A stretch of DNA of 32,000 nucleotides, taken from positions 390,001 to 422,000 of the forward strand of contig NZ_JAGIOS010000003.1 in the NCBI RefSeq assembly GCF_017876815.1. The letters are read 5' to 3'. Under the pieces are notes generated by a model. The model made no database searches and was not told the DNA's origin. It saw only the letters and a list, made by a program, of their open reading frames with translations. The position numbers and the translations under genes are program-made. This DNA comes from Sinorhizobium meliloti (GTDB lineage Bacteria > Pseudomonadota > Alphaproteobacteria > Rhizobiales > Rhizobiaceae). Of this stretch, positions 862 through 17,007 are shown in pieces (within the stretch, counting starts at the first letter, position 1; every line of letters starts with the position of its first letter).

Positions 862-2004
862 ATGTATCTAACGGAAATACAGGGGCAGGTGCGTGATATG
901 GCGCGCGCGTTCGCCGATGAAGTGATCCGGCCGATGGCGGAGTCTCTCGACCGCGAGGAACGTTTCCCCGCAGAACTTTACGGGGAAATGGCGAAGCTCG
1001 GATTGTTCGGTATCGGCGTTCCCGAACACCTCGGCGGACCGGGCTTCGATACGCTGACCTATGCGGTCGTGATGGAGGAGCTCAGCCGCGGTTATGCGTC
1101 GGTTGCCGATCAGTGCGGGCTGGTGGAGCTGATCTCCACACTGCTCGTCCGTCACGGGACCGAAGGTCAGCAACGCATGCTCCCCGACGTTCTGAACATG
1201 AGCGCCAAGGTCGCTTACTGCATCACCGAGCCCGAGGCCGGAACCGACGTATCGGGCATTCGGACGACGGCGGAACGCGACGGCGACGGCTGGATGCTTA
1301 ACGGCGGCAAGATCTGGATCCATAACGCGCCCGTTGCCGATGTCGGTTTCGTTCTGGCGAGGACCGACAAGGAGGCCGGCAACCGCGGCATGTCGATCTT
1401 TATCGTCGATCTCAATTCCGCAGGGGTCGAGAGAGGTCCGAAAGAGCACAAGATGGGCCAGAGAGCCAGCCAGGTGGGAGCGTTGACCTTCACCGATGTG
1501 CGCCTGCCGGGCGGTGCTCTGCTGGGCCAGGAGGGCCGCGGTTTCCACATGATGATGTCCGTTCTCGACAAAGGCCGCGTGGGCATCGCCGCACTCGCCG
1601 TCGGCATCGCCCAGGCGGGGCTGGAGGCGGCGGTGGACTATGCCGGGACACGCAAGCAGTTCGGCAAGGCCATTTCCGATTTCCAGGGCGTGCAGTGGCT
1701 TCTCGCCGACATGGCAAAGGACATCGAAGCCGCGCGTCTTCTCGTCCATTCGGCCGCCTCGAAGATCGACCGGGGCCTGGACGCGACGAAGGCCTGCTCG
1801 ATCGCAAAATGTTTCGCCGGGGACATGGCCGTTCAGCGCACCGCCGACGCGGTCCAAGTCTTCGGCGGGTCGGGCTATATCCGCGGCTTCGAAGTCGAGC
1901 GGCTCTATCGTGACGCAAAGATCACCCAGATCTACGAAGGCACGAACCAGATCCAGCGGATGATCATTGCGCGTGAACTTCTGAAGAAGGGGGCAAGGGC
2001 GTGA
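862..2004 (+). CDS. acyl-CoA dehydrogenase family protein
   Basis: ORF 847-2004. MYLTEIQGQVRDMARAFADEV... is the typical ACAD N-terminus (M-x-LTEEQ style). The C-terminal YRDAKITQIYEGTNQIQRMIIAREL carries the catalytic-Glu YEGT motif. The start may be ATG 847 or ATG 862; 862 fits family N-termini better. Confidence 0.9.
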   Translation: MYLTEIQGQVRDMARAFADEVIRPMAESLDREERFPAELYGEMAKLGLFGIGVPEHLGGPGFDTLTYAVVMEELSRGYASVADQCGLVELISTLLVRHGTEGQQRMLPDVLNMSAKVAYCITEPEAGTDVSGIRTTAERDGDGWMLNGGKIWIHNAPVADVGFVLARTDKEAGNRGMSIFIVDLNSAGVERGPKEHKMGQRASQVGALTFTDVRLPGGALLGQEGRGFHMMMSVLDKGRVGIAALAVGIAQAGLEAAVDYAGTRKQFGKAISDFQGVQWLLADMAKDIEAARLLVHSAASKIDRGLDATKACSIAKCFAGDMAVQRTADAVQVFGGSGYIRGFEVERLYRDAKITQIYEGTNQIQRMIIARELLKKGARA

Positions 2005-2780
2005 GTAATCCGACCGCGAAACCCGTGGCACTGGTGACGGGCTCGTCACGCGGTATCGGTCTTGCCGCTGCCGAAGCCCTGGCGCGGGAAGGGTTCTCCG
2101 TCGCAATCAACGGGCTGACGGCCGACGACGAATTGGCGGTCGCTGCCGCACGCGTCTCCAGGCACGGAGCGCCGGTGATCGCGGTGGCCTTCGACGTCGC
2201 AGACTTGGCTGCTCACGAGGCGGCGCTCACGAAGATCGAGGCGGAGCTCGGCCCGCTCACGACACTCGTCAATAATGCCGGGGTTGGCGTTCTGAAGCGC
2301 GGCGACCTCCTCGATGTGACGGAAGAGAGCTGGGATCGTTGCCTCACGGTGAATGCCAAGGCGATGTTCTTTCTGAGCCAGGTTTTCGCGCGCCGACTTC
2401 TGGCTCGGGAGCGAAGCCCGCTTTTCCACTCGATCGTCAACGTCACTTCGTCGAATTCCGTGGCGGTCGCCGTTCAGCGCTCGGAATATTGCGCCTCCAA
2501 GGCGGCGGCGTCGATGGTGTCCAAGGCGCTCGCGGTCCGCCTTGGGCGGGAAAACGTCGCTGTTTACGACGTCCAGCCCGGCCTGATCGCCACCGAAATG
2601 ACCGCTCCGGTGATCGACTCCTATCGAGAGCGTGCGGAGCAGGGGCTGACGCTTTTTCCGCGCGTCGGAGAGCCCGAGGAGGTCGGGGCCGTGATTGCCT
2701 CGCTCGCCTCCGGAAGGCTCCCCTACACGACAGGACAGACGATCTCGGCAGATGCCGGCATGCTCGTTCCGCGATTTTGA
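2001..2780 (+). CDS. SDR family oxidoreductase (classical short-chain dehydrogenase/reductase)
   Basis: VALVTGSSRGIGLAAAEAL (TGxxxGxG), NNAG and SEYCASKAA (YxxxK). The GTG start overlaps the upstream stop (GTGA, 2001-2004). Confidence 0.9.
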   Translation: MSNPTAKPVALVTGSSRGIGLAAAEALAREGFSVAINGLTADDELAVAAARVSRHGAPVIAVAFDVADLAAHEAALTKIEAELGPLTTLVNNAGVGVLKRGDLLDVTEESWDRCLTVNAKAMFFLSQVFARRLLARERSPLFHSIVNVTSSNSVAVAVQRSEYCASKAAASMVSKALAVRLGRENVAVYDVQPGLIATEMTAPVIDSYRERAEQGLTLFPRVGEPEEVGAVIASLASGRLPYTTGQTISADAGMLVPRF

Positions 2781-2788
2781 GGTCTCCA

Positions 2789-3937
2789 ATGAAAATTGCT
2801 CTTCCCGATGCCGAAGGCAGGCTGGCCGAATACAGCCTTTCAGGTAACGCGATAGCGGGCGCGGCCCTCGGTCCCGATCGTGCTCGTGTCGTCTATTCCG
2901 CCGCGCATGTCGTGGCAGACCCGTTCACCGCCAACGAGCCCTCAGGACGGGCGACCGTCGACTGGCCGAAGACGCTGGAGTTCCGCCGCTATCTTGCGGG
3001 GCTGGGGCTCGGGATCGCCGAGGCCATGGACACGGCACAGCGCGGTATGGGTCTGGACTGGGCGGGCGCCCTGGAACTCATTCGCCGCACGAAGGCCGAG
3101 CTGCCGGACGCGCTGGTTGCGAACGGCTGCGGAACCGACCACCTGGACCTTTCCAGATCCCACAGCATCGACGACGTGAGACGTGCCTATCTCGATCAGG
3201 TCGAAGCGGTGCAGAAGCTGGGCGGGCGGATCATCCTGATGGCGTCGAGGGCTCTGGTTCGGGCGGCCAGGGGGCCGGACGATTACATCAGCGTCTATTC
3301 CGACGTGCTCGATGCCTGTGACCACCCGGTCATCCTGCACTGGCTGGGCGACATGTTCGACCCGCAGCTTGCCGGATATTGGGGTGGCCAGACATTCGAG
3401 CCCGCGATGCAGACGGCGTTGGCCGTTATCGGAGCGAACGTCCGCAAGGTCGACGGCATAAAGATCTCCCTGCTCGACAAGGACAAGGAGATCGTTATGC
3501 GCCGGCTGCTGCCGGCGGGCGTCAAGATGTATACCGGCGACGACTTCAACTATCCGGAACTGATCGAGGGGGACGAGCAGGGCTTTTCGCACGCACTTCT
3601 CGGCATCTTCGATCCGCTCGCGCCGGCTGCCGCCTTTGCGGTACAGAGACTTGGCGAGGGCGACGTTAGCGCGTTCCGCGCGACATTGGATCCGACAGTG
3701 CCGCTGGCGCGGCTGATCTTCCGGGCGCCGACGCAACACTACAAGACGGGCGTGGTCTTCCTGGCTTGGCTGAACGGCTTTCAGGATCACTTCGTGATGC
3801 TGAACGGCGCGCAGGCGATGCGGCCGCTTCCCTATTTCACCGAGGTTTTCAGGCTCGCGGATCAATGCGGTCTGCTTCGCGATCCGGAAGTGGCCGTCAC
3901 CCGCATGAAGCGCCTCCTCGCAGTCTACGGAGTCTGA
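2789..3937 (+). CDS. DUF993-like protein (TIM-barrel-type protein of unknown function)
   Basis: The last 382 codons of track ORF 2339-3937. The credible start is MKIALPDAEGRLAEYSL at ATG 2789, 8 nt after the SDR stop. AAHVVADPF and AEAMDTAQRGMGLDW match my memory of DUF993 proteins; the family call is from recollection only. Confidence 0.6.
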   Translation: MKIALPDAEGRLAEYSLSGNAIAGAALGPDRARVVYSAAHVVADPFTANEPSGRATVDWPKTLEFRRYLAGLGLGIAEAMDTAQRGMGLDWAGALELIRRTKAELPDALVANGCGTDHLDLSRSHSIDDVRRAYLDQVEAVQKLGGRIILMASRALVRAARGPDDYISVYSDVLDACDHPVILHWLGDMFDPQLAGYWGGQTFEPAMQTALAVIGANVRKVDGIKISLLDKDKEIVMRRLLPAGVKMYTGDDFNYPELIEGDEQGFSHALLGIFDPLAPAAAFAVQRLGEGDVSAFRATLDPTVPLARLIFRAPTQHYKTGVVFLAWLNGFQDHFVMLNGAQAMRPLPYFTEVFRLADQCGLLRDPEVAVTRMKRLLAVYGV

Positions 3938-3938
3938 G

Positions 3939-4796
3939 ATGAGGGACTTCTCTTCGGACCACTCGGCCCTCGCACTGAACACGGCGAGCCTCGGCCACAA
4001 CCTCGAGGGCCACGGTGCGGGCTGGACGAGCGAACAGGTCATCGATGCCTGTGCCGAGCGCGGTTTCGGGAGCATCGTGTTCTGGCGGCGCGAGATCGGT
4101 GAACGCGCCGTGAAGATCGGCGAACGGGTTCGTTCTGCCGGGCTGACCGTGGCGGGTCTGTGCCGGACCCCCTTTCTGGTAGGCACCCAGGCGACGGATG
4201 TCGAAAGCGTCATGGACGATTTCAAGAGGTCGATCGACATGGCGGCAGCCTTGGGGGCTCCGGTCTTAACGATCGTCGTCGGAGGCGTGCATCCGGGGAC
4301 CAAAGGGGTTGCCGAGAGCCTGAAGATCGTGGCGGACCGCGTTGCCGAAGCCGCTCCCTGTGCACAAGCAAGCGGCGTGAAACTGGCGCTGGAGCCACTC
4401 AATCCCGTCTACGCCGGCAACCGGTCGTGCCTCACGACGCTGCGCGATGCCGTGGACCTTTGCGATCGCATAGCTGCCCCGAATGTCGGTATAGCCGTGG
4501 ATGTCTACCATGTCTGGTGGGACACGGAGCTTGAACGGCAGTTGAAGCGTGCCGGCGCCGAGCGAATCTACGGCTATCACCTCTGCGACTGGCTCGCCGA
4601 AACGAATGACGTGCTTCTCGACCGCGGCATGATGGGCGACGGCGTCGCCGATCTCAAGGCGATCCGTTCATTCGTTGAAGGCGCCGGCTATCGCGGCCCT
4701 TGCGAGGTCGAGATCTTTTCCGCGAACGACTGGTGGAAACGCGATCCCGGCGAGGTGCTGGACGTGATGGTCGAGCGTTTCCGCAACTGTTGCTGA
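3939..4796 (+). CDS. sugar phosphate isomerase/epimerase (xylose isomerase-like TIM barrel) family protein
   Basis: 285 aa. KLALEPLNPVYAGNRSCLTT...GIAVDVYHVWWD...YHLCDW is the usual metal-ligand layout of this fold. The start is 1 nt after the upstream stop. Confidence 0.8.
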   Translation: MRDFSSDHSALALNTASLGHNLEGHGAGWTSEQVIDACAERGFGSIVFWRREIGERAVKIGERVRSAGLTVAGLCRTPFLVGTQATDVESVMDDFKRSIDMAAALGAPVLTIVVGGVHPGTKGVAESLKIVADRVAEAAPCAQASGVKLALEPLNPVYAGNRSCLTTLRDAVDLCDRIAAPNVGIAVDVYHVWWDTELERQLKRAGAERIYGYHLCDWLAETNDVLLDRGMMGDGVADLKAIRSFVEGAGYRGPCEVEIFSANDWWKRDPGEVLDVMVERFRNCC

Positions 4797-4812
4797 CAGA
4801 GAGTAGGAATCC

Positions 4813-5562
4813 ATGAAAATACTTGTGACGGTGAAACGGGTGGTCGACTACAACGTCAAGATCCGGGTCAAAGCGGATGGATCGGGCGTCGAGCTTGCCA
4901 ATGTGAAGATGTCGATGAACCCGTTCGACGAGATCTCGGTCGAAGAGGCGCTGCGGCTGAAGGAAGCCGGCAAGGCGAGTGAAGTGGTGGTCGTGTCGAT
5001 CGGCCCGGCCAAGGCGGAAGAGACGCTCAGGACCGCGCTCGCCATGGGCGCCGACCGGGCGATCCTGGTCGAGACCGAGGACCAGGTCGAGCCGCTCGCC
5101 GTCGCCAAGATCGTCAAGGGCGTGGCCGAGGCCGAACAGCCGGGGCTGATCATCGTCGGCAAGCAGGCGATCGACGACGATTCCAACCAGACCGGCCAGA
5201 TGCTGTCGGCATTGCTTGGCTGGGCCCAGGGCACCTTTGCCTCCAAGGTCGAGATCGGCGACGGCAAGGTCAACGTCACCCGCGAGGTCGGCGGCGGCCT
5301 GCAGACGGTCGAACTGAAGCTGCCGGCGGTGGTCACCACCGATCTCAGGCTCAACGAACCGCGCTATGCCTCGCTGCCGAACATCATGAAGGCGAAGAAG
5401 AAGCCGCTCGACAAGAAGACCCCGGCCGACTTCTGCGTCGACACCAGCCCGCGGCTGAAAGTCTTGAAGACGGAAGAGCCGTCCGGCCGCAAGGCCGGCG
5501 TCAAGGTGAAGACGGTCGCCGAGCTCGTCGAGAAGCTCAAGACCGAAGCCGGCGTGCTTTAA
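4813..5562 (+). CDS. etfB: electron transfer flavoprotein subunit beta
   Basis: [53 protein letters not shown]... is a near-canonical EtfB sequence. An AGGAA RBS is present. Confidence 0.95.
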
Positions 5563-5585
5563 GTTCAGGAAAGGGAGATATCATC

Positions 5586-6515
5586 ATGGCTATTCTGCTT
5601 CTGGCTGACCACGACAACAGCCACCTTTCCGACCAGACGGCGAAGGCACTGACGGCGGCAGCGAAGATCGGCGGCGACGTGCATGTGCTGGTTGCCGGTC
5701 AGAACGTCAAAGGCATCGCCGAACAAGCCTCCAAGCTCTCGGGCGTTGCCAAGGTGCTGGTCGCCGAGGACGCCTCGCTCGCTAACAATCTCGCCGAGCC
5801 GCTGGCGGCCCTGATCGTTTCGCTCGCCGGCAATTACGACACCGTTATTGCCGCCGCCACCTCGGTCGGCAAGAACGTCATGCCGCGGGTCGCAGCCCTT
5901 CTCGACGTCGCCCAGGTTTCGGAGATCATCGAGGTCGTCTCGGCTGACACGTACCGGCGGCCGATCTATGCCGGCAACGCCATCCAGACGGTGCAGACGA
6001 GCGAGCCGAAGAAGGTGATCACCGTGCGCACCGCCTCCTTTGCCGCCGCTCAAGAAGGCGGCTCGGCACCGGTCGAGACGGTTGCCGCCGCGGCGAATCC
6101 GGGCCTTTCCGCCCATGTTTCCGATGCCCTGTCGTCCTCCGACCGGCCGGAACTGACCTCGGCGAAGATCATCATCTCCGGCGGTCGGGCGCTCGGCTCC
6201 TCGGAGAAGTTCAAGGAAGTCATCCTGCCGGTTGCCGACAAGCTCGGCGCCGCCGTCGGCGCCTCCCGCGCCGCCGTCGATGCCGGCTATGCGCCGAACG
6301 ACTGGCAGGTCGGCCAGACCGGCAAGGTGGTCGCCCCGGACCTCTACATCGCCTGCGGCATTTCCGGTGCGATCCAGCACCTCGCCGGCATGAAGGACAG
6401 CAAGGTGATCGTCGCCATCAACAAGGACGAGGAAGCGCCGATCTTCCAGGTCGCCGACTACGGCCTCGTCGCCGATCTCTTCGAAGTCCTGCCGGAACTC
6501 GAAAAGGCGCTTTGA
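5586..6515 (+). CDS. etfA: electron transfer flavoprotein subunit alpha
   Basis: 309 aa. The C-terminal FAD-binding block is [74 protein letters not shown] is present. Confidence 0.95.
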
Positions 6516-6530
6516 GGCGAGCATGGCCAA

Positions 6531-7445
6531 TCAGGATCTGCCGGAGAGCTCGAACTGGCAGTGGCTGAAGAAGGCCCGGACGGTCTCGTTGTCCTTCAGG
6601 AAGTGCGCCGTCCCGAAATAGATGGGAACAGGCGTGAGGCTCAGCAGCTCCACCCGGGTTATCGTGTCGTCGTCCGGTCCGACGGACCAGGTAGGCAATA
6701 TGGAAAAGCCGAGGCCTTCGCTGACATAGCGCTTGATGCTGACGCTTGACGAAACCGAGATCAGCGGCTCGACGACCGCACCCTTGCTGCTGAGGAAACC
6801 GGTGGCAATGTCCCTTATTATCTGTCCCGGTTCATGCGAAACGAAAGGACGACCGCAGGCCCATTCGGGAATATCTCCCTCGGCGGGAGCGGGTCCCCAG
6901 GTTCGGGGATAGACGAGCGAAAGGCTGTAGCGGCCGATCAACTGCTGGATCACGACGGAGTCGCCAAAGTGCCGCTCCGCAATGAATATGTCGAGGCTGC
7001 CCTGGCGGACCAGGTCGGACAGGGCGGTGTCACGCTCGTAGACGACAAGCTCCACGTCAGGGCGGCTTTCATGGAATTTCCGGACGACCCTGGGAAAGAG
7101 ATCATGGAAGATTCCCTGCGGCATGCCGATCCGCAGCACCGGACGCTGGCTCTCCATCAGTCGCGTCAGACGTGTCAGCATGATGTCGAATTCCGGGCGG
7201 ATCAACTCGTAAAGCGCAAGTCCCCGCGGTGTCAGTCCCACGCGCCGTGCCCCGCGCTCGGCAACGACCAGCCGCTCGCCGAGGAGGTGTTCCAGCCGCC
7301 GGATATGGTTCGCCACGGATGGATGGCTGAGATTGAGCTCCCGGGCCGCAGCGGAATAGGAGCCGGTCCGTCCGAGTTGGTAGAACGTCTGGACAAGTGA
7401 GAGGCTGATGCTGGGCAAGTGGCGGTTCCTGCGGCTCGTGGGCAT
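6531..7445 (-). CDS. LysR family transcriptional regulator
   Basis: The N-terminal HTH is [45 protein letters not shown], followed by a LysR substrate-binding-type C-terminus. ATG 7445 (MPTSRRN...) is preferred over the TTG at 7502 used in the track. Convergent with etfA, with a 15 bp spacer. Confidence 0.9.
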
Positions 7446-7607
7446 TCGCGCCGAGGACGTTACGGTGAGCAGGGGCAGGGCCGCAAGGCGCAGCTTCGGC
7501 AAGTTGTAAGTTTTTTCATAACTCGTGCCCTTGTTCTTTTATCGACGCGGTTTTGCCGGGCGCGCTACGATCTGTCCCGAGACCTCCTTGCAAGGCGTTC
7601 AGATCAG
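7446..7607. promoter_or_regulatory. divergent promoter/operator region between the LysR gene and the oxidase-amidase-transporter operon
   Basis: This is the only AT-rich patch nearby (GTTGTAAGTTTTTTCATAACTCGTGCCCTTGTTCTTTTATCGAC, about 7503-7546). It contains ATAA (7518-7521) ... TTAT (7539-7542) and similar GTT-T-rich half repeats. I could not define a clean T-N11-A LysR box. Confidence 0.3.
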
Positions 7608-8777
7608 GTGCGCGAGCAGCATTCTTCACCACCAGTCATTGTGATAGGCGCGGGCATTGTCGGCGCCGCGACCGCGTCGTTTCTCGCGCTCGCGGGTACG
7701 CCAGTTCGGCTGCTCGACGCTTCGACGCCGGCCAGCGGGGCGACCGGCGCTGCAGATGGTGCGGTGTCGGTGGCGAGCAAGCGCCCGGGTCCGATGATGA
7801 CGATGGCCCGGGCCGGAGCGGCGCTTTATCGCGAACTCGCCGAGGAGGGGTTGTTCCAAGGCCTCTTCCACAGGCGGCCCACCTTCCTCGTTGCGACGAG
7901 CGATGCGGAAGCCGACGTCCTTTCCGACCACTCGGAAGCTCTCGCCGAGGTCGGTGCGCCGGTGCTTTGGCTCACCCGGGATATGGCTGCAGACAGATTG
8001 GCCCCGCTCTCCCGAAAGACGGTGGCAGTGCTTGAAGTCGAAGACGAGGGGCACGCGATCGGCTACAGCATAGTTTCGCGTCTGATTTCCGCCGCAGGGT
8101 TGAAGGTGGAGCGCAATTCCCCCGTTGCGGCGCTGGAATACGACGGACGATCCGGCCGCGTCAGCGGCGTTCGTGTCGGGGAAGCGGTGATCGAAGCCTC
8201 GGCGGTGGTCGTCGCCGCAGGTGGCGGCGCGGGCGGGCTTATAGGACTTCCCGATGTGTCGCGTCCACGTAGGGGGCAGCAACTGGTGACCGAGCGGGCA
8301 CCCACCCTGAATGCCGCCCTGCCGGGGTCGCTTCTCTCCTGCAGCTATCTCCTCAGCAAGAAGCAAGGGGGCGATGCGGATCAGCGCGGATATGGCGTCG
8401 TCATCGACCCGCTCGAAACCGGCCAGTTCCTGATCGGCTCGACACGGGAGGAGGGCCGCAACATCCCTGAAAATGATATCGACGCGGTGGCTCACCTGGC
8501 GGCCTCCGCTGGGGACATGGTGCCCGCGCTAGGGCGCTTGCGCATCCTTCGGTGCTTCGCCGGAATCCGCACTGCGATATGCGATGGCCTGCCGATGGTC
8601 GGCAGGATGCCCGGTGTCGACAATCTTTTCGTCGCAGCCGGGTTTGAAGGAGACGGCATCTGCCTTGGTCCGCTGACTGGCCGGATCGTGGCGGATCTTG
8701 TTCGGGGGGAGGAGCCGGAAATCGATGTTTCGCCGTTCGATCCGGGCCGGTTCGCCGGTAGGAGCATCGCGGCATGA
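7608..8777 (+). CDS. FAD-dependent oxidoreductase, HcnC / opine oxidase subunit B (OoxB)-like
   Basis: Track ORF 7419-8777. The dinucleotide fold VIVIGAGIVGAATASFLALAG begins 9 codons after in-frame GTG 7608. The family-typical C-terminus is GFEGDGICLGPLTGRIVADLV. The start position is uncertain. Confidence 0.8.
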   Translation: MREQHSSPPVIVIGAGIVGAATASFLALAGTPVRLLDASTPASGATGAADGAVSVASKRPGPMMTMARAGAALYRELAEEGLFQGLFHRRPTFLVATSDAEADVLSDHSEALAEVGAPVLWLTRDMAADRLAPLSRKTVAVLEVEDEGHAIGYSIVSRLISAAGLKVERNSPVAALEYDGRSGRVSGVRVGEAVIEASAVVVAAGGGAGGLIGLPDVSRPRRGQQLVTERAPTLNAALPGSLLSCSYLLSKKQGGDADQRGYGVVIDPLETGQFLIGSTREEGRNIPENDIDAVAHLAASAGDMVPALGRLRILRCFAGIRTAICDGLPMVGRMPGVDNLFVAAGFEGDGICLGPLTGRIVADLVRGEEPEIDVSPFDPGRFAGRSIAA

Positions 8778-9031
8778 CGGCCGTCCGGACTTTTTTCTGG
8801 CGGGGCTCCGAGGTGCCGTTCCGAGCAGGCGAAAGCATTGCAGCCGCCCTTGCCGGTTCGAACATCCATGGATTCGGAAAGGATCCTGCCGGGTCACCAA
8901 CCCGGTATTTCTGCGGCATCGGTGCCTGTCAATCTTGCCTCGTCCGTGTGGATGGGCGCGCAACCGAGGCCTGCCTCGACCCGGTCTATGACGGAATGGT
9001 CGTGATGGCGCTGGAGGATGACGATGCGTGA
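8774..9031 (+). CDS. (2Fe-2S)-binding protein, HcnA-like small subunit
   Basis: 85 aa. The Cys cluster is YFCGIGACQSCLVRVDGRATEACL. ATGA start/stop overlap with the upstream gene (8774-8777). Confidence 0.8.
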   Translation: MTAVRTFFWRGSEVPFRAGESIAAALAGSNIHGFGKDPAGSPTRYFCGIGACQSCLVRVDGRATEACLDPVYDGMVVMALEDDDA

Positions 9032-10376
9032 GGCCGACATCATCGTCGTCGGCGGTGGACCGGCCGGCGTGTCGGCGGCGATCGAAGCCGCGAAATCGGG
9101 GCTCTCGGTGATGCTTTGCGAGCAGAGGCCGGCGCTCGGCGGCGCCATCCATCGCCAGCCGGCCGAAGGCGCAACCCCCGTTGCCGTCTTACCGTCACTT
9201 AGGGGCCGCTGGCAGGCCCTGTCTGCGGAGCTTTCCGCCTCGGGCGTGGATGTTCGGACGCGCCGCGCATTCGTCGGCGTCGACAGCACAGGCGCCGTGT
9301 TGATCGAAGACCGGGCAGCTGGCAAGGTCGAAGTACGCCGGCCGCGCGCCTTGATTTTAAGCTGCGGGGCCGTGGAGCGGGTAAGACCGCGTCGGGGCTG
9401 GCATTTGCCCGGCGTCGCCGCGGCAGGCGGTCTCCAGGTGATGCTGAAGGAGGGCCGCGTGCCTGGGGGACGCATCCTGCTTGCGGGGAGCGGCCCGCTG
9501 CTGCTCGCTTTGGCCGCACAAATGACGGCAGCCGGCAATCCGCCCGTGGCCGTCATCGAGGAGGGAGACCCTGCTTCGCGGCCCCTGGCAGGTGTCCGTC
9601 TGCTGGCTCATCCATCCATCCTTCCGGACATGGCTGCCCTGATGATGCCTGTCCTCTTCCGCCGCGTCGTGTGGCGCCGCGGCACGCGCCTGACGGAGAT
9701 CACCCAATCCGGCGATATGCTCACCGCGTGCCTCATCGCGCCAAACGGGCGGGAGGAGCGGATCGAGGTCGACCGCATCGGTCTCCATGACGGGCTGCGT
9801 CCGAACGATTTCGGCCTGCCGGCCAATGATGCCGCGGCAGGCCTCGTCATCCTGCGGGCCGGAGATGTGCGCGAAGTGCTCGGCGCGCACGCCGCCGAGG
9901 CGGATGGAGCCGAAGCGGGCCGCGAAGCTGCGGCACGGCTGGCAGGGCGCCCGCCGCGCAGTGGCGCGAACGGGATTCGACGCCTGCGCTCTCTGCAGAC
10001 CAGCCTTTCCCGCCTTTTCGCGCCCGTCCACGGTGCGCCGATCCTGGACGATTGTCCCGGAGACACGGTGATCTGTCGTTGCGAGAACCGGACGATCAGC
10101 CATCTGAAAGCACAATTGTCGGGGCCGGACACCGTTTCAGCACGAGAATTGCGGCTCAACGGACGGTTCGGCATGGGCGCCTGCCAGGGGCGCTTCTGCT
10201 CCGAATGGACGCTTTCACTGATGTCCGAACTGCGCCCCACAGCCTCTCCGTCAAGTATCGCCGAAATGGGCGCTTGCCGTTGGCCGTTGCGGCCCGTAGC
10301 TCTGTCGTCGCTCGCAAAAGGTGGCACGAACGCCGACACACTGACAGAACCGCATATGGAGGAGATCTCGGCATGA
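9024..10376 (+). CDS. FAD/NAD(P)-binding oxidoreductase with C-terminal BFD-like [2Fe-2S] motif, HcnB / opine oxidase subunit A (OoxA)-like
   Basis: ADIIVVGGGPAGVSAAIEAAKSG, then a second Rossmann-like ILLAGSGPLLLALAAQ. C-terminal VICRCENRT...GMGACQGRFC. ATG 9024 has GGAGGA 6 nt upstream; the track uses ATG 9018. Overlaps the upstream stop at 9029-9031. Confidence 0.8.
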   Translation: MREADIIVVGGGPAGVSAAIEAAKSGLSVMLCEQRPALGGAIHRQPAEGATPVAVLPSLRGRWQALSAELSASGVDVRTRRAFVGVDSTGAVLIEDRAAGKVEVRRPRALILSCGAVERVRPRRGWHLPGVAAAGGLQVMLKEGRVPGGRILLAGSGPLLLALAAQMTAAGNPPVAVIEEGDPASRPLAGVRLLAHPSILPDMAALMMPVLFRRVVWRRGTRLTEITQSGDMLTACLIAPNGREERIEVDRIGLHDGLRPNDFGLPANDAAAGLVILRAGDVREVLGAHAAEADGAEAGREAAARLAGRPPRSGANGIRRLRSLQTSLSRLFAPVHGAPILDDCPGDTVICRCENRTISHLKAQLSGPDTVSARELRLNGRFGMGACQGRFCSEWTLSLMSELRPTASPSSIAEMGACRWPLRPVALSSLAKGGTNADTLTEPHMEEISA

Positions 10377-10476: not shown

Positions 10477-11952
10477 ATGAACACAAGAATACTGGGTTTG
10501 GCCGCCGGCCTCGCCGTCCTGTTCGCGTCCACATCTTGGGCGCAGTCGATCACCGTAGCGATCGGCTCGGAGCCTTCGACCCTCGATCCCCAACTCCGCG
10601 ATGACGGGGGTGAGCGACAGGTCAACGACAATATTTATGAAGCGCTGATGGCGCGCACTGCGACTGGCGATCTCGTGCCGGGCCTTGCCGCAGATGCGCC
10701 GACACAGGTGGATGCCAGGACCTGGCAGTTCAAGCTGCGTGAAGGCATCAAGTTCCACAACGGCGAGCCATTCAACGCCGATGCCGTCGTCGCTTCGGTG
10801 CTGCGGGTGATAGATCCGGCGAACAATTCGGAGCAGATGGCCTATCTTGGTCCGCTTTCAGGAGCCGAAAAAGTCGATGACCTGACTGTCCGCATCATCA
10901 CATCCGCCCCCGACCCGATCCTGCCGGCCCGGATGTATTGGCTGAAGATGGTCCCTGCCGCCTACTCGAAGAACGCGACCGCCATCGCGGAGAAGCCGGT
11001 CGGAACCGGCCCCTACAAGTTCGGCACCTGGGACCGCGGGAACAGTATCACAATGACGGCCAACACCGATTACTGGGGTGGGGAGCCGCAGATCGATGAT
11101 GTGACCTACCGCTTCGTGAGCGAGGCAGGCACGCGGCTATCGGGGTTGGTCGCCGGTGAATTTGACGTCGTCGTCAATCTGCTTCCCGAATTTGCCGACT
11201 CCGTGCCTCAGGCAAAGTCGGTAAGCGGCCTCGAGACATCGGTCATCATTCTCGGCGTGGACAATCCGGCCGTGAAGGATGTGCGAGTGCGCCGGGCGCT
11301 CAACATGGCAATTGATCGGCACGCCCTTGCGGAAAGCCTGTTTGCCGGCAACGCGAAGGTAACAAAGGGACAGCTCGTCCTGCCGGGCGCCTTCGGCTAC
11401 AACGAGAGTCTGGAAAACTGGCCTTACGATCCACAGGGTGCGAAGAAGCTGATCGCGGAAGCGGGCGCGGCCGGAACGACGATCGATCTCGTCGGCGAGG
11501 CGGGGCGCTGGCTGAAGGACCGGGAGCTGGTCGAGGCGGTTGCCGCGTATTGGACCGAGGTCGGACTGAAGGTGAATGTCGAGATCCTCGAATTCTCGGT
11601 GTATCTCGACCGCATCTTCGACATGGGCAACCGGCCCGACAGCTACTTTGTCCTCAACTCGAACGAGCTTTTTGACGCCGACCGTGAAATGGCCTTCGCT
11701 TACGAACCGGGCCAGGGCGGTGCCTCGAACAGCGACAAGGCCCTCGGCGAGGCCATCCGTGCAGCACGTTCGGAAGTCGACGTGGAAAAACGCAAGGCCG
11801 CCTATGCCGTGATCACGAAGAAGCTGCACGACGAAGCCTATGACGTCCCGCTTCTGAACCATCAGGACATTTACGGCATGTCCGAAAAGATGGAATGGCA
11901 GCCGCGGGTGGATTCAAAGATTATTGTCAGGGAAATGAAGGTCAATGAGTGA
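10477..11952 (+). CDS. ABC transporter substrate-binding protein, family 5 (peptide/opine/nickel type), copy 1
   Basis: The signal peptide is MNTRILGLAAGLAVLFASTSWAQ, followed by SITVAIGSEPSTLDPQ... ATG 10477 is preceded by AAGAGGGG; the track ORF starts earlier, at 10390. Confidence 0.9.
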   Translation: MNTRILGLAAGLAVLFASTSWAQSITVAIGSEPSTLDPQLRDDGGERQVNDNIYEALMARTATGDLVPGLAADAPTQVDARTWQFKLREGIKFHNGEPFNADAVVASVLRVIDPANNSEQMAYLGPLSGAEKVDDLTVRIITSAPDPILPARMYWLKMVPAAYSKNATAIAEKPVGTGPYKFGTWDRGNSITMTANTDYWGGEPQIDDVTYRFVSEAGTRLSGLVAGEFDVVVNLLPEFADSVPQAKSVSGLETSVIILGVDNPAVKDVRVRRALNMAIDRHALAESLFAGNAKVTKGQLVLPGAFGYNESLENWPYDPQGAKKLIAEAGAAGTTIDLVGEAGRWLKDRELVEAVAAYWTEVGLKVNVEILEFSVYLDRIFDMGNRPDSYFVLNSNELFDADREMAFAYEPGQGGASNSDKALGEAIRAARSEVDVEKRKAAYAVITKKLHDEAYDVPLLNHQDIYGMSEKMEWQPRVDSKIIVREMKVNE

Positions 11953-12124
11953 CGCTGGCAAAATCGAGGCGCAGTTGAGGGCGATTGCGAAGGTCAGGCT
12001 GCCTCATGGGGCTTCTGAGGAAGAGATCGCGGATTTTGTTCGAGGCCTCGTCATACTCGATGACGTGACGTTGCGGGCGCGTCGCGTGGCCGAAAGGCTA
12101 GCCCAGGACGAGATGCAGCCATGA
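11945..12124 (+). CDS. small hypothetical protein (59 aa), possible GatC/AtzG-like partner of the downstream amidase
   Basis: Below the ORF-track size cutoff. Sequence: MSDAGKIEAQLRAIAKVRLPHGASEEEIADFVRGLVILDDVTLRARRVAERLAQDEMQP. Its ATG overlaps the binding-protein stop (ATGAGTGA, 11945-11952). Its stop overlaps the amidase ATG (ATGA, 12121-12124). A purine-rich AGGGAAATGAAGG lies upstream. By my count about two thirds of third codon positions are G/C. Confidence 0.5.
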   Translation: MSDAGKIEAQLRAIAKVRLPHGASEEEIADFVRGLVILDDVTLRARRVAERLAQDEMQP

Positions 12125-13536
12125 CCGCGCTTGAAAACCTGTCGATCAGGAAACTTGCGGCGATGGTCCGGGCACGTGAGATCTCCGCCGTTGATGTGAC
12201 AACCCATTTCCTTGGCCGAATCGTGGCCTACGACGATGCACTTTGCGGGTTCAACGTGCCGGCACCGGAAGCAGCTCTGGACGCCGCACACGATCTCGAT
12301 ACGTATCTGAATGCAGGAGGCGAGGCGGGGGCGCTTGCCGGCATACCGCTCTCCATCAAAGATATAGCCGATGTTGCCGGGCTTCCCTCTGCGGGGGCCT
12401 CGGCGTCACGGTCAGGGCGCACGGCCACTGCCGATGCGACTGTCGTTGCCCGTATGAAGGCGGCGGGTGGGATCGTGCTAGGCAAGGCGAACTGCCACGA
12501 GCTTGCCTTCGGCGGCCCGTCTTTCGATCTGCCTTTCCCGCCTGCCCGCAATCCCTGGAATCTTGACCGCTTTCCCGGTGGCTCGTCGAGCGGATCCGGC
12601 GTCACCGTCGCTGCCGGCCTCTGTCTCGGATCGCTGGCGACCGACACGGCCGGTTCGATCCGGCTTCCGGCCACGATGTGTGGCGTCTTCGGCCTGAAGC
12701 CCGGTCACGATACGCTGCCGCTCGACGGTATCGCTGTCCTCGCGGCCACGATGGACCATGTGGGCCCGGTCGCCCGGACCGCCGATGATACCCGCATCCT
12801 GTTCGACGTCATGGCAGGCCGCAGCCCCGGTTCACCCTTCGTCGAATCGCTAAAAGGTCTTCGGATCGGCGTCCCGGAGAATGAATGGGATGTTGGACGG
12901 CTGATACATCCCGATGTGCGGGCGGCTATCGACGGCGCCATCGAAGTCGCCCGGTCTGAAGGCGCAGACATCGTGCCGCTCCGGCTTCCTTCGCTGGAGG
13001 ATTTCCACGCCCCGGGCACCGTTCTCATGATGTGCGAGGTTGCTGCGGAGCATGCCGCTTCCGTCCGTGCGGCCTGGGACAAGTTCGGCGCGATATTCCG
13101 GGCTCGCGCACTTGTCGGTGAGGGGATAGCGGTTCATGACTTCCGACTGGCCGAACGTCTGCGCCCTGTTTTGAGGAAGAGGCTCTTGGACGCTATGTCG
13201 AACGTCGATTGCCTGCTGGTCCCCGGCGCACTCGCGCCGCCCGGGCCGCTTGCGTCGGTCGACCCCTTCTATTTCATGAAGGACCCCATTCCGAATATCG
13301 TCGCCAATTATACTGGCTTTCCCGCTCTCGCCTTTCCGGCAGGTTTTGGCGGCGACGGGATGCCGGTCGGAGTGCAGATCATGGGGGTGCCGCGCTCCGA
13401 GCATCGGCTGCTCGACATTGCCGAGAGCTTCGAAAGGGCTGATCCATCGCGGTTTGCGGCCAGGACGCCTCCGGGACTGGAAGGCCGGCCCGAGCCTTGC
13501 CTGTTCAAACTAGAACTTCCGGCTCGAGCCATGTGA
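12121..13536 (+). CDS. amidase (amidase-signature family, GatA/AtzE-like)
   Basis: PLSIKDI (catalytic Lys), GGSSSGSGVTVAAG (AS signature) and DTAGSIRLPA (nucleophile Ser). 471 aa. Confidence 0.9.
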   Translation: MTALENLSIRKLAAMVRAREISAVDVTTHFLGRIVAYDDALCGFNVPAPEAALDAAHDLDTYLNAGGEAGALAGIPLSIKDIADVAGLPSAGASASRSGRTATADATVVARMKAAGGIVLGKANCHELAFGGPSFDLPFPPARNPWNLDRFPGGSSSGSGVTVAAGLCLGSLATDTAGSIRLPATMCGVFGLKPGHDTLPLDGIAVLAATMDHVGPVARTADDTRILFDVMAGRSPGSPFVESLKGLRIGVPENEWDVGRLIHPDVRAAIDGAIEVARSEGADIVPLRLPSLEDFHAPGTVLMMCEVAAEHAASVRAAWDKFGAIFRARALVGEGIAVHDFRLAERLRPVLRKRLLDAMSNVDCLLVPGALAPPGPLASVDPFYFMKDPIPNIVANYTGFPALAFPAGFGGDGMPVGVQIMGVPRSEHRLLDIAESFERADPSRFAARTPPGLEGRPEPCLFKLELPARAM

Positions 13537-13564: not shown

Positions 13565-15049
13565 ATGAAGAAGATACAGAGACTGACTGCCGGCATCGTG
13601 ATGTTGCTCGCGTCGACACTTGCCGCATCGGCAGCATGGGCACAATCCATCACCATCGCCATCGGGTCGGAGCCTTCGACGCTCGATCCGCAGCTTAGGG
13701 ATGACGGCGGCGAGCGACAGGTCAACGACAACATCTATGAGACGCTGATGGCAAGGACGCCGACCGGCGAACTCGTGCCGGGTCTGGCCGCGCAGCCTCC
13801 GAAGCAGGTCGACGCCACGACCTGGCAGTTCAAATTGCGGGACGGCGTCAAGTTCCACAATGGCGAACCTTTCAATGCCGATGCCGTGGTTGCATCCGTC
13901 TCGCGGGTCATCGATCCTGCCAACAATTCCGAACAGATGGCGTATTTCGGTACGATCAAGACGGCCGAAAAGGTCGATGACCTGACAGTCAACCTCGTCA
14001 CCACAGGCCCGGATCCGATCCTGCCGTCGCGCATGTACTGGATGAAGATGATCGCGCCCGGCTATGCCAAGGACGGCGATCTTGCCGGTGCGCCGGTCGG
14101 AACCGGCCCGTACAAGTTCGACAGCTGGAACCGCGGGACGGACCTGAAGCTCGTTGCAAACGCGGACTACTGGGGCGGGGAACCGCAGATCGACGACGTC
14201 ACCTACCGCTTCGTGACGGAGCCGGGCACGCGCCTTTCCGGCCTGCTTTCCGGCGAATTCGACGTGATCACAAACCTCCTGCCGGAGTTCACGACAAATG
14301 TGCCGAAGTTCGCTGCCGTTCCCGGCCTCGAGACGTCGGTCTTCGTTCTGGGCACGGACAACGAAGTTACGAAGGACCCGAAGGTGCGCGAGGCGCTCAA
14401 TCTCGCCATCGACCGCAAGGCCATGGCCGAGGGCCTGTTCATGGGCTATGCGACCCTCGCCAAAGGGTCGCACATCAATCCGGCAGCCTTCGGCTTCAAC
14501 GAAAAGCTGGAGCACTATCCCCATGACATCGAGAAGGCGCGGGCGCTGATCAAGGAGGCAGGGGCCGAGGGCAAGCCTCTCGTGGTCGTCGGCGAATCCG
14601 GCCGCTGGCTGAAGGACCGTGAGCAGATCGAAGCGGTCGCGGGTTACTGGGCCGAGACCGGGCTGAACGTCACGACCGACATCCAGGAATTCTCGCAGTA
14701 CCTCGACAGCCTGATGGGCGACGGGCCGCGTCCCGACGCGATCTTCATCGCCAATTCCAACGAACTGCTCGATGCCGACCGGGAAATGTCCTTCATCTAC
14801 CACAAGGACGGTGCAGCGGCATCGAACTCGGATGCCGAAATGGCCACCATGATCGAGGCGGCACGCGTCGAAACGGATACTGCAAAACGCAAGGCGCTTT
14901 ATGACGATATCCAGAAGAAGGGCCACGACCTGAACTACACCGTCCCGCTGTTCAATCTCCAGGACATCTACGGAATGTCGGAACGCATGGAATGGCAGCC
15001 ACGTGTCGACGCGAAGTTGATGGTGAGCGAAATGAAGGTAACCGAATAG
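13565..15049 (+). CDS. ABC transporter substrate-binding protein, family 5, copy 2 (paralog of 10477-11952)
   Basis: The signal peptide is MKKIQRLTAGIVMLLASTLAASAAWAQ. It is collinear with copy 1 along its whole length, with long identical blocks such as GSEPSTLDPQLRDDGGERQVNDNIYE. Confidence 0.9.
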   Translation: MKKIQRLTAGIVMLLASTLAASAAWAQSITIAIGSEPSTLDPQLRDDGGERQVNDNIYETLMARTPTGELVPGLAAQPPKQVDATTWQFKLRDGVKFHNGEPFNADAVVASVSRVIDPANNSEQMAYFGTIKTAEKVDDLTVNLVTTGPDPILPSRMYWMKMIAPGYAKDGDLAGAPVGTGPYKFDSWNRGTDLKLVANADYWGGEPQIDDVTYRFVTEPGTRLSGLLSGEFDVITNLLPEFTTNVPKFAAVPGLETSVFVLGTDNEVTKDPKVREALNLAIDRKAMAEGLFMGYATLAKGSHINPAAFGFNEKLEHYPHDIEKARALIKEAGAEGKPLVVVGESGRWLKDREQIEAVAGYWAETGLNVTTDIQEFSQYLDSLMGDGPRPDAIFIANSNELLDADREMSFIYHKDGAAASNSDAEMATMIEAARVETDTAKRKALYDDIQKKGHDLNYTVPLFNLQDIYGMSERMEWQPRVDAKLMVSEMKVTE

Positions 15050-15127: not shown

Positions 15128-16048
15128 ATGCTGGAATTCATCCTCCGCCGCCTGTTCCAGGGCGTGCTCGTCGTCTTCGGGGTGACAGCGACCGTCTTCG
15201 TCGTGACCCGACTGGTGGGCGATCCGGTTGCGCTGATGCTTCCGCTCAGCGCAACGGAGGCGCAAAGGGCTGCCTTTGCCCAGCAGATCGGCCTGGACCA
15301 GCCGATCGCCACGCAGTTCCTGCGTTTCGTCGGGGACATCGCCACACTGGATTTCGGAAACAGCCTCTGGCAGCGTCGCCCTGCGATCGAAGTCGTGTTC
15401 GAGCGCTTGCCGAACACGCTGCTGTTGATCGCGGCAGGGCTTGGAGCCGCAGTCATGCTTTCGATACCGCTGGGCGCCGTTTCGGCTCTGCGTCCGGGCG
15501 GACTGGTCGATCGGCTGACCATGTCGGTCGGCCTTCTCGGGCTCGCGATGCCGCAATTCTGGCTCGGTCTCGTCGCCATCATGATCTTTGCGGTCACGCT
15601 GAGATGGCTGCCGACCTCCGGCATGGGCACGGCCGCTCACCTTGTTCTTCCAGCCCTTACGCTCGCCCTGACGCCGCTTGCGCGCTTCACGATGATGGTG
15701 CGCGCGTCAATGATCGACGAACTCAACAAGCCCTATGTCAAGACGGCAAGGGCAAAGGGCCTCGGGCTAACGCGTATTCTGCGCGTCCATACCTTACGCA
15801 ACATCCTGGTTCCCTTTCTCTCTATCTCCGGATGGGAACTGATTGCCACTCTCTCCGGCTATACGGTTGTGGTCGAAACGGTGTTCGCGTGGCCGGGGCT
15901 GGGCCTGACGGCCGTGCAGGCGATCCAGCGGGGCGACCTGTTTCTGATGCAGGCCATCGTCTTCGTCATCGCTTTCCTGATCGTCTTGATCGGCATCGCG
16001 CTCGACATCCTGTCGAAGGCGGTGGATCCGAGGATGGAATTGAACTGA
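15128..16048 (+). CDS. ABC transporter permease (DppB/OppB-like)
   Basis: MLEFILRRLFQGVLVVFGVTATVFVVTRLVGDPV... is the typical N-terminus. AAGGA lies 9 nt upstream of ATG 15128; the track ORF starts at 15074. Confidence 0.9.
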   Translation: MLEFILRRLFQGVLVVFGVTATVFVVTRLVGDPVALMLPLSATEAQRAAFAQQIGLDQPIATQFLRFVGDIATLDFGNSLWQRRPAIEVVFERLPNTLLLIAAGLGAAVMLSIPLGAVSALRPGGLVDRLTMSVGLLGLAMPQFWLGLVAIMIFAVTLRWLPTSGMGTAAHLVLPALTLALTPLARFTMMVRASMIDELNKPYVKTARAKGLGLTRILRVHTLRNILVPFLSISGWELIATLSGYTVVVETVFAWPGLGLTAVQAIQRGDLFLMQAIVFVIAFLIVLIGIALDILSKAVDPRMELN

Positions 16049-17007
16049 TGGCCGCTTCCGCTTCCGCCGCTTCACCCACTCCTGTCGGCACGCGCGTGCC
16101 GCGCGGAAGGATATCGGAGCTCTGGCACGACAAGACCGCCGCCATCGGCCTCGCCCTCATCCTGCTCATCGTGTTCCTGGCCCTGTTCGCTCCGCTCATC
16201 GCACCTTACGATCCGGCCGCGCAGTCGATCATGGCACGGCTGAAGCCGCCGGTCTGGATGGAGCGCGGTACCTGGGAACACTTGCTCGGAACCGATAATC
16301 TCGGCCGCGACGTCCTGTCCCGCATCATCTGGGGTGCGAGGGCGACGCTGACGATCGGCGCCGTCACCTGCCTTCTGGCGGCGACACTGGGGACCGTCAT
16401 CGGCCTTTGGGCAGGCTTCATGGGAGGACGCACGGACTCGATCCTGATGCGTCTGGTCGACATTCAGGTGAGCTTCCCGGGCATACTTCTCATCCTCCTC
16501 GTCGTCGCGGTTCTGGGGCCAGGCGTCTGGACGCTTGTTGCGGTCCTGTCGGTGACGAACTGGATGGTCTATGCCCGGCTCGTGCGCGGCATCGTCTCGT
16601 CGACCCGTCAGACCCCTTACGTCGAAGCAGCCGAAGTGATCGGCTGTCGTCCTGCAAGGGTCATCTTCAGGCATATCCTGCCGAACATCGTCTCGCCGCT
16701 GATGACGCTCGCGATCCTGGAGTTCACCAATATCGTGCTGGCGGAAGCAGCGGTGTCGTTTCTCGGCTTCGGCGTTCAGCCTCCGGCGACGTCATGGGGG
16801 CTCGACGTCGCCTCGGGACGGGACTACCTGTTCATCGCGTGGTGGCTCGTGACCTTTCCGGGCCTTGCGATCGTCGTGACAGTGCTGTCCATCAATCTCT
16901 TCGCCAACTGGTTGCGGGTAACGACCGACCCCGAGGAACGGGAGAAACGCTTTGCGCGCGCCGAGGCGGCCAGGCGGCGGCGCGGGCGACGGAGGGCGGA
17001 AGCATGA
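16048..17007 (+). CDS. ABC transporter permease (DppC/OppC-like)
   Basis: The last 319 codons of track ORF 14992-17007. The real start is MAASASAASPTPV... at ATG 16048, overlapping the upstream stop (TGATG). LFAPLIAPYDP and later blocks are family-typical. The C-terminal tail is Arg-rich. Confidence 0.9.
   Translation: MAASASAASPTPVGTRVPRGRISELWHDKTAAIGLALILLIVFLALFAPLIAPYDPAAQSIMARLKPPVWMERGTWEHLLGTDNLGRDVLSRIIWGARATLTIGAVTCLLAATLGTVIGLWAGFMGGRTDSILMRLVDIQVSFPGILLILLVVAVLGPGVWTLVAVLSVTNWMVYARLVRGIVSSTRQTPYVEAAEVIGCRPARVIFRHILPNIVSPLMTLAILEFTNIVLAEAAVSFLGFGVQPPATSWGLDVASGRDYLFIAWWLVTFPGLAIVVTVLSINLFANWLRVTTDPEEREKRFARAEAARRRRGRRRAEA

Follow-up and report, generated by a model that had tools for sequence, protein, structure and literature searches.

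A conserved small gene overlapping an amidase-signature gene on the Sinorhizobium meliloti pSymA megaplasmid and the possible role of its product as an amidase partner

Does the short open reading frame lying between a solute-binding protein gene and an amidase-signature gene on megaplasmid pSymA of Sinorhizobium meliloti constitute a gene and, if so, what might its product do beside an amidase? The initial annotation of the window, the 32,000-nt stretch of DNA analysed here, had described this ORF as hidden from automated annotation and had read its product as a possible GatC- or AtzG-like subunit of the amidase. We examined the ORF, its counterparts at orthologous loci and its relationship to these two known partners of amidase-signature enzymes.

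A translated small gene between a binding-protein gene and an amidase gene

The binding-protein stop codon (11952) and the amidase ATG (12121) are separated by 168 bp, and an ATG-to-TGA frame on the forward strand (Table 1) does fill this gap as initially described; its translation agrees with the product reported there. Both proposed overlaps, ATGAGTGA at the start and ATGA at the stop, are present. Reading of the sequence also located the purine-rich leader, as GAAGG 4 nt 5′ of the ATG, and the estimate that about two thirds of third codon positions are G/C was borne out by a GC3 of 0.667, the values per codon position being 0.70/0.42/0.67, a high-low-high pattern that the flanking genes share. 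At the amidase start the Shine-Dalgarno-like sequence is weak. The same overlap geometry was found at other loci, as ATGANTGA/ATGAATAA, and the 8-nt overlap restricts residues 2-3 of the small-protein family to [S/N/T][D/E]. A 95-aa antisense ORF overlaps the small ORF; such overlaps are common in GC-rich DNA. An Rfam scan of the window returned no RNA element, and an explanation of the segment as an RNA element was dropped.

Table 1 Features of the amidase locus (positions in the window)
Feature	Positions	Strand	Remarks
DAO-type FAD oxidoreductase gene	7419-8777 (maximal ORF)	+	First of the upstream operon genes (7419-10376); context
2Fe-2S protein gene, 85 aa	8774-9031	+	Upstream operon gene; context
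Pyr_redox_2 FAD oxidoreductase gene	9018-10376	+	Upstream operon gene; context
Family-5 periplasmic solute-binding protein gene	10477-11952	+	Pfam SBP_bac_5; Sec signal peptide MNTRILGLAAGLAVLFASTSWA/QS; upstream neighbour, not in all lineages
Purine-rich GAAGG, Shine-Dalgarno-like	11933-11941	+	Inside 3′ end of binding-protein gene; putative role
8-nt start/stop overlap ATGAGTGA, binding-protein gene/small ORF	11945-11952	+	Read from sequence
Small ORF	11945-12124	+	59 codons, ATG...TGA; product 6.6 kDa, acidic, pI 5.2, cytoplasmic
4-nt stop/start overlap ATGA, small ORF/amidase gene	12121-12124	+	Read from sequence; putative termination-reinitiation coupling
Amidase-signature enzyme gene, 471 aa	12121-13536	+	Pfam Amidase 1.4e-88; triad Lys80-Ser155-Ser179 intact
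Second family-5 binding protein gene	13565-15049	+	Followed by ABC permease and ATPase genes; context

The view that automated annotation would miss this ORF proved wrong for current pipelines. PGAP labels it "hypothetical protein" in numerous records of S. meliloti megaplasmids, and it has been SM2011_RS03800 in RefSeq since 2017, being absent only from the 2014 GenBank annotation; the existence of the gene is not new. Published Ribo-seq of S. meliloti 2011 lists CP004138.1:759186-759365 (SM2011_RS03800) as translated with a TE of ~0.98 (Hadjeras et al. 2023, PMC10117765 Table S7), places it among 54 curated translated sORFs and groups it with the translated small ORFs lacking in the 2014 annotation; the tables of that study hold no MS or Western evidence for the protein (PMC10117765).

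The frame was intact at all orthologous loci examined, down to 44% amidase identity. For unsaturated pairs the small ORF gave a dN/dS of ~0.22-0.25, comparable to the 0.15-0.28 obtained for the amidase, and conserved residues were retained between lineages whose synonymous sites have reached saturation. The small ORF is a real, translated gene under purifying selection.

A small-protein family and its linkage to the amidase gene

Homologues of the small protein were collected as 27 clusters of 40-62 aa, every one named hypothetical and none carrying a Pfam domain, and together they form a previously unclassified and unnamed family. Single-sequence and exhaustive searches yielded one 50%-identity cluster only; further members came from orthologous loci and profile searches, and the metagenome scan was made with an amidase alignment. 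The family occurs in Sinorhizobium, Shinella, Pelagibacterium, Paenirhodobacter, Aminobacter and related metagenomic lineages, and a protein HMM still recognises it at 44% amidase identity. Its core consists of Leu19-Pro20, an Ala-Ser N-cap and a long helix (residues ~25-57) with an invariant Gly34. The Paenirhodobacter members are devoid of the N-terminal third of the protein. No stretch of 7-10 columns is conserved throughout the small-protein alignment.

Two AF2 runs both predicted the long helix at residues 25-57 with confidence and differed at the N-terminus, which was modelled as a weak beta-hairpin in the first and as a helix (3-14) plus loop in the second. The strand of the first run had suggested a ribbon-helix-helix, DNA-binding protein; this was rejected, there being no RHH Pfam hit, no strand in the second model and no such region in the 41-aa members. 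A conserved face on one side of the helix was likewise dropped (moment test, p = 0.14) and, since conservation is not limited to a single helical face, no docking surface stands out. We also rejected the idea of a split gene, with the ORF as the missing N- or C-terminal part of a neighbour: the amidase aligns over its full length to Pfam and GatA, no longer protein with the motif was found, and the exhaustive and profile searches retrieved only stand-alone proteins of 40-62 aa. A signal peptide is present in the binding protein and absent from both the small protein and the amidase.

An amidase-signature gene lies directly downstream of the family member in 31 out of 31 loci, and these amidases belong to a single clade. 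The offset between the two is -4 in most of them and -14, -8 or +8/+9 in the others. Upstream, four contexts were encountered, among them the SBP_bac_5 gene of the window locus, an ABC ATPase gene (L096/L097/L100) and a divergent DAO oxidoreductase gene (L098 and L111-L115), the small ORF being in this last case the first cistron. Since its upstream neighbour changes, it is the pairing of the small ORF with the amidase gene that forms the conserved unit. The family HMM gave no hit among the ORFs of ~80 loci with more distant amidases, and many of the distant amidase genes recovered had a GatC or AtzG-like ORF upstream. Neighbouring clades (L012/L016, L032/L041) have other unclassified small ORFs abutting an amidase gene.

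In NCBIfam, the amidase itself does not reach the cut-offs set for IaaH, AtzE and GatA; with the AtzE models (TIGR02715 / NF006631) it reached 229-245 bits against cut-offs of 426-461. Its closest PDB relatives are GatA (1e-54) and AtzE (2e-40). In a rough NJ tree it falls in a clade of its own, outside the GatA and AtzE-like clades and apart from the AtzG-associated amidases.

Given a genuine, selected gene whose sole constant neighbour is the amidase gene, a role as amidase partner is the most economical reading. Adjacency and coupling are nevertheless equally compatible with a different role in the same pathway. The small protein could, for instance, modulate the ABC importer or the LysR regulator, or act on the pathway substrate, and be merely co-transcribed with the amidase, a reading that we regard as unlikely. 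ABC transporter genes and FAD oxidoreductases are always nearby in these loci, and conservation all round the helix would also suit homo-oligomerisation or another partner. However, the transporter changes from locus to locus, both in type (family-5 peptide/opine or family-3 polar amino-acid) and in distance from the small ORF, with a gap of ~600 bp in L111-L115, whereas the amidase gene stays at -4 nt; nor did Pfam or Foldseek reveal any DNA-binding or other domain signature.

Relationship to GatC and AtzG

The proposed likeness of the small protein to GatC or to the AtzG-like family (DUF4089, PF13318) was not supported. None of nine family members hit PF02686 or PF13318 at E<=10, and NCBIfam likewise gave none; seven of nine control ORFs from other amidase loci matched PF13318, with 4e-15 as the best value. 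Neither of two family profiles (A1 and A7) retrieved GatC or AtzG chains (including 6c62_C) from the PDB at E<=10, while control profiles of the same construction found AtzG 6c62_C at 8e-6 and GatC at 2e-26; 6C62 is the structure of AtzE with AtzG. All hhalign probabilities lay within 0.4-2.6%. Against GatC, alignments of 15-26 columns gave 1.2%, 0.4% and 0.4% (P 0.046-0.16), on a scale where the AtzG-versus-GatC positive control reached only 7.8%; against AtzG, where the register was non-homologous, they were 2.6%, 0.8% and 1.0%. The values decreased as the family profile gained diversity. The window protein showed no excess over composition-matched shuffles with the GatC HMM (p = 0.23) or with AtzG (p = 0.29), and distant members have SEQDKQDI in place of the SEEEI..F motif on which the likeness had been based. 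Foldseek on the AF2 models, which as isolated, small, helical structures carry little signal, matched neither GatC nor AtzG.

We consider it improbable that the small protein is an extremely diverged descendant of GatC or AtzG which binds the amidase the way GatC engages GatA with its N-terminal helices. Gene position and coupling match gatC-gatA and atzG-atzE, the nearest solved relatives of the amidase are GatA and AtzE, and the second AF2 model is a helix-loop-helix. In addition, hhalign repeatedly returned the register originally proposed (AS-x-x-E...F...L versus L-[ST]-x-x-E...F...L) with the P values given above, and the Pelagibacterium member does exceed shuffles against the GatC HMM (p = 0.003-0.01). 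The tests are of low power, and some room is left for a very remote ancestry since AtzG itself fails to exceed shuffles against the GatC HMM. Against such descent stand the empty Pfam, PDB-profile and Foldseek searches, the weakening of the signal as the profile broadens, the loss of the matched motif in distant members, the 40-41-aa members without an equivalent of helix 1 and the position of the amidase clade in the NJ tree. What endures of the initial proposal is a real gene with a constant amidase neighbour; the likeness to GatC and AtzG is not supported.

Proposed role and comparison with known systems

From these sequence comparisons we propose, with about even confidence, that the small protein is an accessory subunit of the amidase belonging to a previously unclassified family with no detectable membership of GatC or AtzG. 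The 4-nt overlap would couple translation of the small ORF to that of the amidase gene by termination-reinitiation, and the two proteins may in this way be co-produced in a roughly fixed proportion. The small protein, envisaged as a conserved Leu-Pro turn followed by a single long helix with an invariant glycine, would then bind the amidase in a non-catalytic capacity and could serve its folding, solubility, assembly or gating. By analogy, we infer that it would probably act on its amidase as AtzG does with AtzE or GatC with GatA. More tentatively, the small protein may be an obligate structural subunit without recognisable relationship to GatC or AtzG; taken with the other unclassified small ORFs abutting amidase genes, small helical clamp subunits could then be a general feature of GatA-derived amidase-signature enzymes, either repeatedly reinvented or diverged beyond recognition, and many recombinant amidases recorded as "insoluble" or "inactive" may simply be missing an unannotated partner. 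We hold this broader idea to be doubtful.

It is very improbable that the ORF is a leader whose translation alone matters, delivering ribosomes to the amidase start while the peptide is functionless. The start and stop overlaps on both sides and the weak Shine-Dalgarno-like sequence of the amidase would suit such a device, but purifying selection acts at the amino-acid level (dN/dS 0.22-0.25), residues are conserved where synonymous sites are saturated, and the family is still found by a protein HMM where amidase identity is 44%. That the frame is open merely by chance in GC-rich intergenic DNA, as the short length, the lack of a domain and the overlapping antisense ORF might suggest, is refuted in practice by the dN/dS, the listed Ribo-seq evidence (PMC10117765) and the amidase linkage in 31/31 loci, and its probability is negligible.

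The accessory-subunit reading would have practical consequences. Mining for amidase-signature enzymes is widespread in biodegradation and biocatalysis work. If the interaction proves true, the small ORF should be co-expressed with amidases of this clade, and the family would deserve a Pfam entry; if it does not, the small ORF stays one more conserved hypothetical small protein. The uncharacterised, Ribo-seq-validated SM2011_RS03800 gains a concrete candidate partner.

The same ORF appears in the small-protein catalogue of Hadjeras et al. 2023, where the entries concerning SM2011_RS03800 give no function, family or partner and report neither the strict amidase linkage nor the small-protein family (PMC10117765). 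Literature searches covering the adjacent pSymA genes SMa1371-1380 and further small partners of amidase-signature enzymes brought up nothing relevant.

GatC is a subunit of the GatCAB amidotransferase of roughly 95-100 aa, with a C-terminal GatB-binding segment. The small protein is half as long and does not have this segment, no gatB-like gene was seen in the annotated 41-kb context, and GatC HMMs did not match. Shared with GatC are the order of small ORF followed by an overlapping GatA-type amidase gene (directly upstream in 31/31 loci) and a weak local resemblance in an N-capped amphipathic helix, [ST]-x-x-E...F...L..IL, which is not kept across the small-protein family.

AtzG provides the precedent. 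This 68-aa non-catalytic protein is encoded directly 5′ of the AtzE gene and is an obligate partner of AtzE, which is insoluble without it; AtzG is found in ggt-atzG-atzE-atzH clusters, in which the downstream atzH is a DUF3225 gene (PMC6219798). The present family differs in that it has no sequence, profile or fold match to AtzG, whereas the AtzG-like ORFs of other loci were readily recognised; in its short forms, which are without the first helix; in its partner amidase, which lies outside the AtzE clade and under the AtzE model cut-offs; and in the gene downstream, which here encodes a family-5 binding protein in place of atzH/DUF3225. The two are alike in size (40-62 versus ~60-70 aa) and in their helical character, predicted here for the small protein. 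Both genes lie immediately 5′ of a GatA-like amidase-signature gene and are coupled to it, within a catabolic/ABC-transporter cluster with a LysR-type regulator, and in some lineages a gamma-glutamyltransferase gene is nearby, as in the ggt-atzG-atzE-atzH clusters. The AtzE/AtzG precedent illustrates that an overlooked 68-aa partner can determine the solubility of an enzyme, and the family described here adds a second group of small proteins, without sequence relation to AtzG, whose linkage to an amidase gene is as tight as that of AtzG to AtzE.

A translated small gene between two known ones

The initial annotation had described a 59-codon frame between the genes for a family-5 solute-binding protein and an amidase, and all of its sequence observations were present in the window. 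This small ORF overlaps both neighbours, with its ATG on the stop codon of the binding-protein gene (ATGAGTGA) and its TGA on the amidase start codon (ATGA); without it a 168-bp gap would remain between the two. The purine-rich leader GAAGG lies just 5' of the ATG, and the GC content by codon position (0.70/0.42/0.67) matches that of the flanking genes. The frame is not hidden from current pipelines, as had been supposed, because PGAP already annotates the 180 bp as "hypothetical protein" in many records (e.g. QND35439.1 and WQP09577.1).

The window matches the S. meliloti SM11 megaplasmid record NC_017327.1 at 100% identity and pSymA of strains 1021 and 2011 at 99.2%. Ribosome profiling, which had been suggested as a check, has been published for strain 2011, and the available parts of that study (PMC10117765) report exactly this small ORF, there a V36A variant, as one of 54 small ORFs that were curated manually as translated and are missing from the 2014 GenBank annotation. 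They list Ribo-seq RPKM values of 174/414 and translation efficiencies of 1.03/0.93, and assign it no function. As also proposed, we examined the loci of orthologous amidases in reference genomes and in metagenomes. An intact small ORF was found at the same place in all of them, namely at amidase identities of 84% in S. medicae, 71% in Shinella, 67% in Paenirhodobacter, 57% in Pelagibacterium and 71, 61, 55 and 44-45% in metagenomic relatives. Its dN/dS was 0.22-0.25, compared with 0.15-0.28 for the amidase (Nei-Gojobori, unsaturated pairs), and Rfam gave no family match anywhere in the window. The intact frames, dN/dS, Rfam result and Ribo-seq together exclude that the frame is open by chance or acts purely as an RNA element; the small ORF is a translated gene under selection, and that it should be no gene at all is hardly conceivable given its intact orthologues, dN/dS and translation.

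A 95-aa antisense ORF with a GTG start lies across both the small ORF and the start of the amidase gene. It is unsupported and of a kind typical in GC-rich DNA; the Ribo-seq evidence, being strand-specific, belongs to the plus-strand ORF.

Positions of the small ORF, its relatives and neighbouring features
Feature	Sequence	Position	Strand
Small ORF, ATG to TGA, 59 codons (read from the sequence)	window	11945-12124	+
Small ORF in strain 2011	CP004138.1	759186-759365	-
Antisense ORF	window	12004-12291	-
FAD oxidoreductase genes flanking Fer2_4 ORF	window	7419-8777 and 9018-10376	
Fer2_4 (2Fe-2S) ORF, 85 aa	window	8774-9031	+
Paenirhodobacter-type short members, 40-41 aa	L009; L087; L090	3876-4001; 7001-7126; 820-942	
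Amidase-abutting small ORFs, nearest clades	L012; L016; L032; L041	3744-3989; 3775-4008; 2550-2774; 3627-3851	
Amidase, Parvularculaceae MAG	L010	2142-3563	
ISRm16 transposase gene	L086 (RCAM1115, CP050559.1)	about 15662-16825	
Small ORF/amidase pair with gamma-glutamyltransferase, SDR and divergent DAO genes	L111-L115	about 1240-6550	

A protein family and its amidase clade

That this gene exists and is translated was known before. The new findings are that it belongs to a definable family, that this family is strictly tied to a single amidase clade across four gene contexts, and that membership in GatC/AtzG tested negative. When 1.8 billion representatives were searched exhaustively with phmmer, a single cluster was returned. 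Profile searches extended this to 27 clusters, all of 40-62 aa, none with a Pfam domain and every named one "hypothetical". In a 32-sequence alignment Gly34 was the sole invariant residue and Leu19, Pro20 and Leu38 were nearly so, within the consensus core L-P-x-x-A-S-x-x-E-x-A-D-F-x-R-G-x-A-I-L. The N-terminal M-[S/N/T]-[D/E] is semi-conserved because the ORF overlaps the upstream stop codon there (ATGANTGA). Since the Paenirhodobacter members lack the entire N-terminal segment, the minimal functional unit would be the Leu-Pro turn and the long helix. This helix (residues 25-57, pLDDT about 87-96) was confident in both AlphaFold2 runs, and the N-terminus differed between them: the run on 15 sequences gave a weak beta-hairpin, the run on 32 a helix (3-14). 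Conservation was not confined to one helical face (p = 0.14). With a pI of 5.2 the small protein is acidic; it is also hydrophilic, has no signal peptide and is, by its sequence, cytoplasmic. The upstream binding protein carries a Sec signal peptide.

An amidase-signature gene directly followed the family member in 31/31 loci, with a stop-to-start offset of -4 nt in most and of -14, -8 or +8/+9 in the rest. The upstream neighbour is the family-5 binding protein in Sinorhizobium, Shinella, Pelagibacterium and Paenirhodobacter types, the ABC ATPase of a family-3 (polar amino acid) transporter in L096, L097 and L100, and a divergently transcribed DAO oxidoreductase in L098 and the Aminobacter-type loci L111-L115. 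In the last group the small ORF opens a two-gene unit as its first cistron, with transporter genes about 600 bp away. Against the family HMM, every distant small ORF scored far better than 1000 shuffles (8-40 bits; p <= 0.001), and the HMM had no match in the loci of more distant amidases, roughly 80 in number. With a constant amidase, a changing upstream gene and an HMM confined to these loci, the conserved module is therefore the pair of small ORF and amidase.

The amidase retains its Lys80-Ser155-Ser179 triad, makes up a clade of its own in a rough NJ tree and scores under the cut-offs of all specific NCBIfam models; GatA and AtzE are the most similar solved structures. The next-closest amidase from a reference genome (Parvularculaceae, 39% identity) begins with a Tat/lipoprotein-like N-terminus (RRQTLAGLASIAIAACA), lacks a small ORF upstream, and is probably exported, with a different biology. 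In the nearest clades, small ORFs of 67-81 aa end at the amidase start; none of the four matched any Pfam family, two appeared GatC-like by eye, and they may represent further unrecognised families of amidase-linked small proteins. Downstream of the amidase in strain RCAM1115, an ISRm16 transposase gene lies inside the ABC permease region and probably interrupts the transporter part of the operon.

Comparison with GatC and AtzG

The initial annotation had proposed a GatC/AtzG-like subunit, partly from a motif, SEEEI..F, resembling the GatC N-terminal pattern. This motif is not conserved, reading SEQDKQDI in distant members. Nine family members gave no GatC (PF02686) or AtzG-like (PF13318) match in Pfam and NCBIfam even at E <= 10, searches of PDB sequences with family profiles retrieved no chain of GatC or AtzG at that threshold, and Foldseek searches of the PDB with both AlphaFold2 models returned no significant match and neither protein. 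As positive controls we used GatC (13) and AtzG-like (9; 7 matching PF13318) ORFs just upstream of distant amidases, whose profiles retrieved GatC at 2e-26 and AtzG 6c62_C at 8e-6. Against these the family gave hhalign probabilities of 1.2% (GatC) and 2.6% (AtzG-like), falling, once the family profiles were made more diverse, to 0.4% and 0.8-1.0%. The window protein was no better than composition-matched shuffles against the GatC or AtzG-like HMM (p = 0.23 and 0.29), with p = 0.053 for an N-terminal GatC model. Such tests are weak for short helical proteins, since accepted relatives also score low: AtzG-like against GatC reached only 7.8%, and solved AtzG was itself no better than shuffles against the GatC HMM (p = 0.39). 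On these comparisons membership is not demonstrated and several defining features fail; a diverged GatC/AtzG homologue, a narrower claim within the amidase-partner reading, appears rather improbable.

Proposed role and parallels

Based on the conserved pair, we consider the chances about even that the small protein is a direct partner of the amidase. Termination-reinitiation coupling at the overlap would yield both products together, and the small helical protein, itself non-catalytic, would bind the amidase as an accessory subunit with a part in solubility, assembly or gating. That it has some different role within this pathway is unlikely, and that the ORF serves purely for coupling a good deal more so. 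If confirmed, the partner role, which is directly testable by co-expression, would provide another small non-catalytic partner of an amidase-signature enzyme and would not much surprise a specialist.

Upstream of the transporter and amidase genes, the Fer2_4 ORF is wedged between, and overlaps, two FAD oxidoreductase genes, a three-component layout like that of HcnABC or opine oxidase. In L111-L115 gamma-glutamyltransferase, SDR and divergent DAO genes adjoin the small ORF/amidase pair, reminiscent of the ggt-atzG-atzE-atzH clusters of AtzG/AtzE homologues (PMC6219798). For the proposed partnership itself AtzG/AtzE is the established parallel, AtzE being insoluble without AtzG (PMC6219798).
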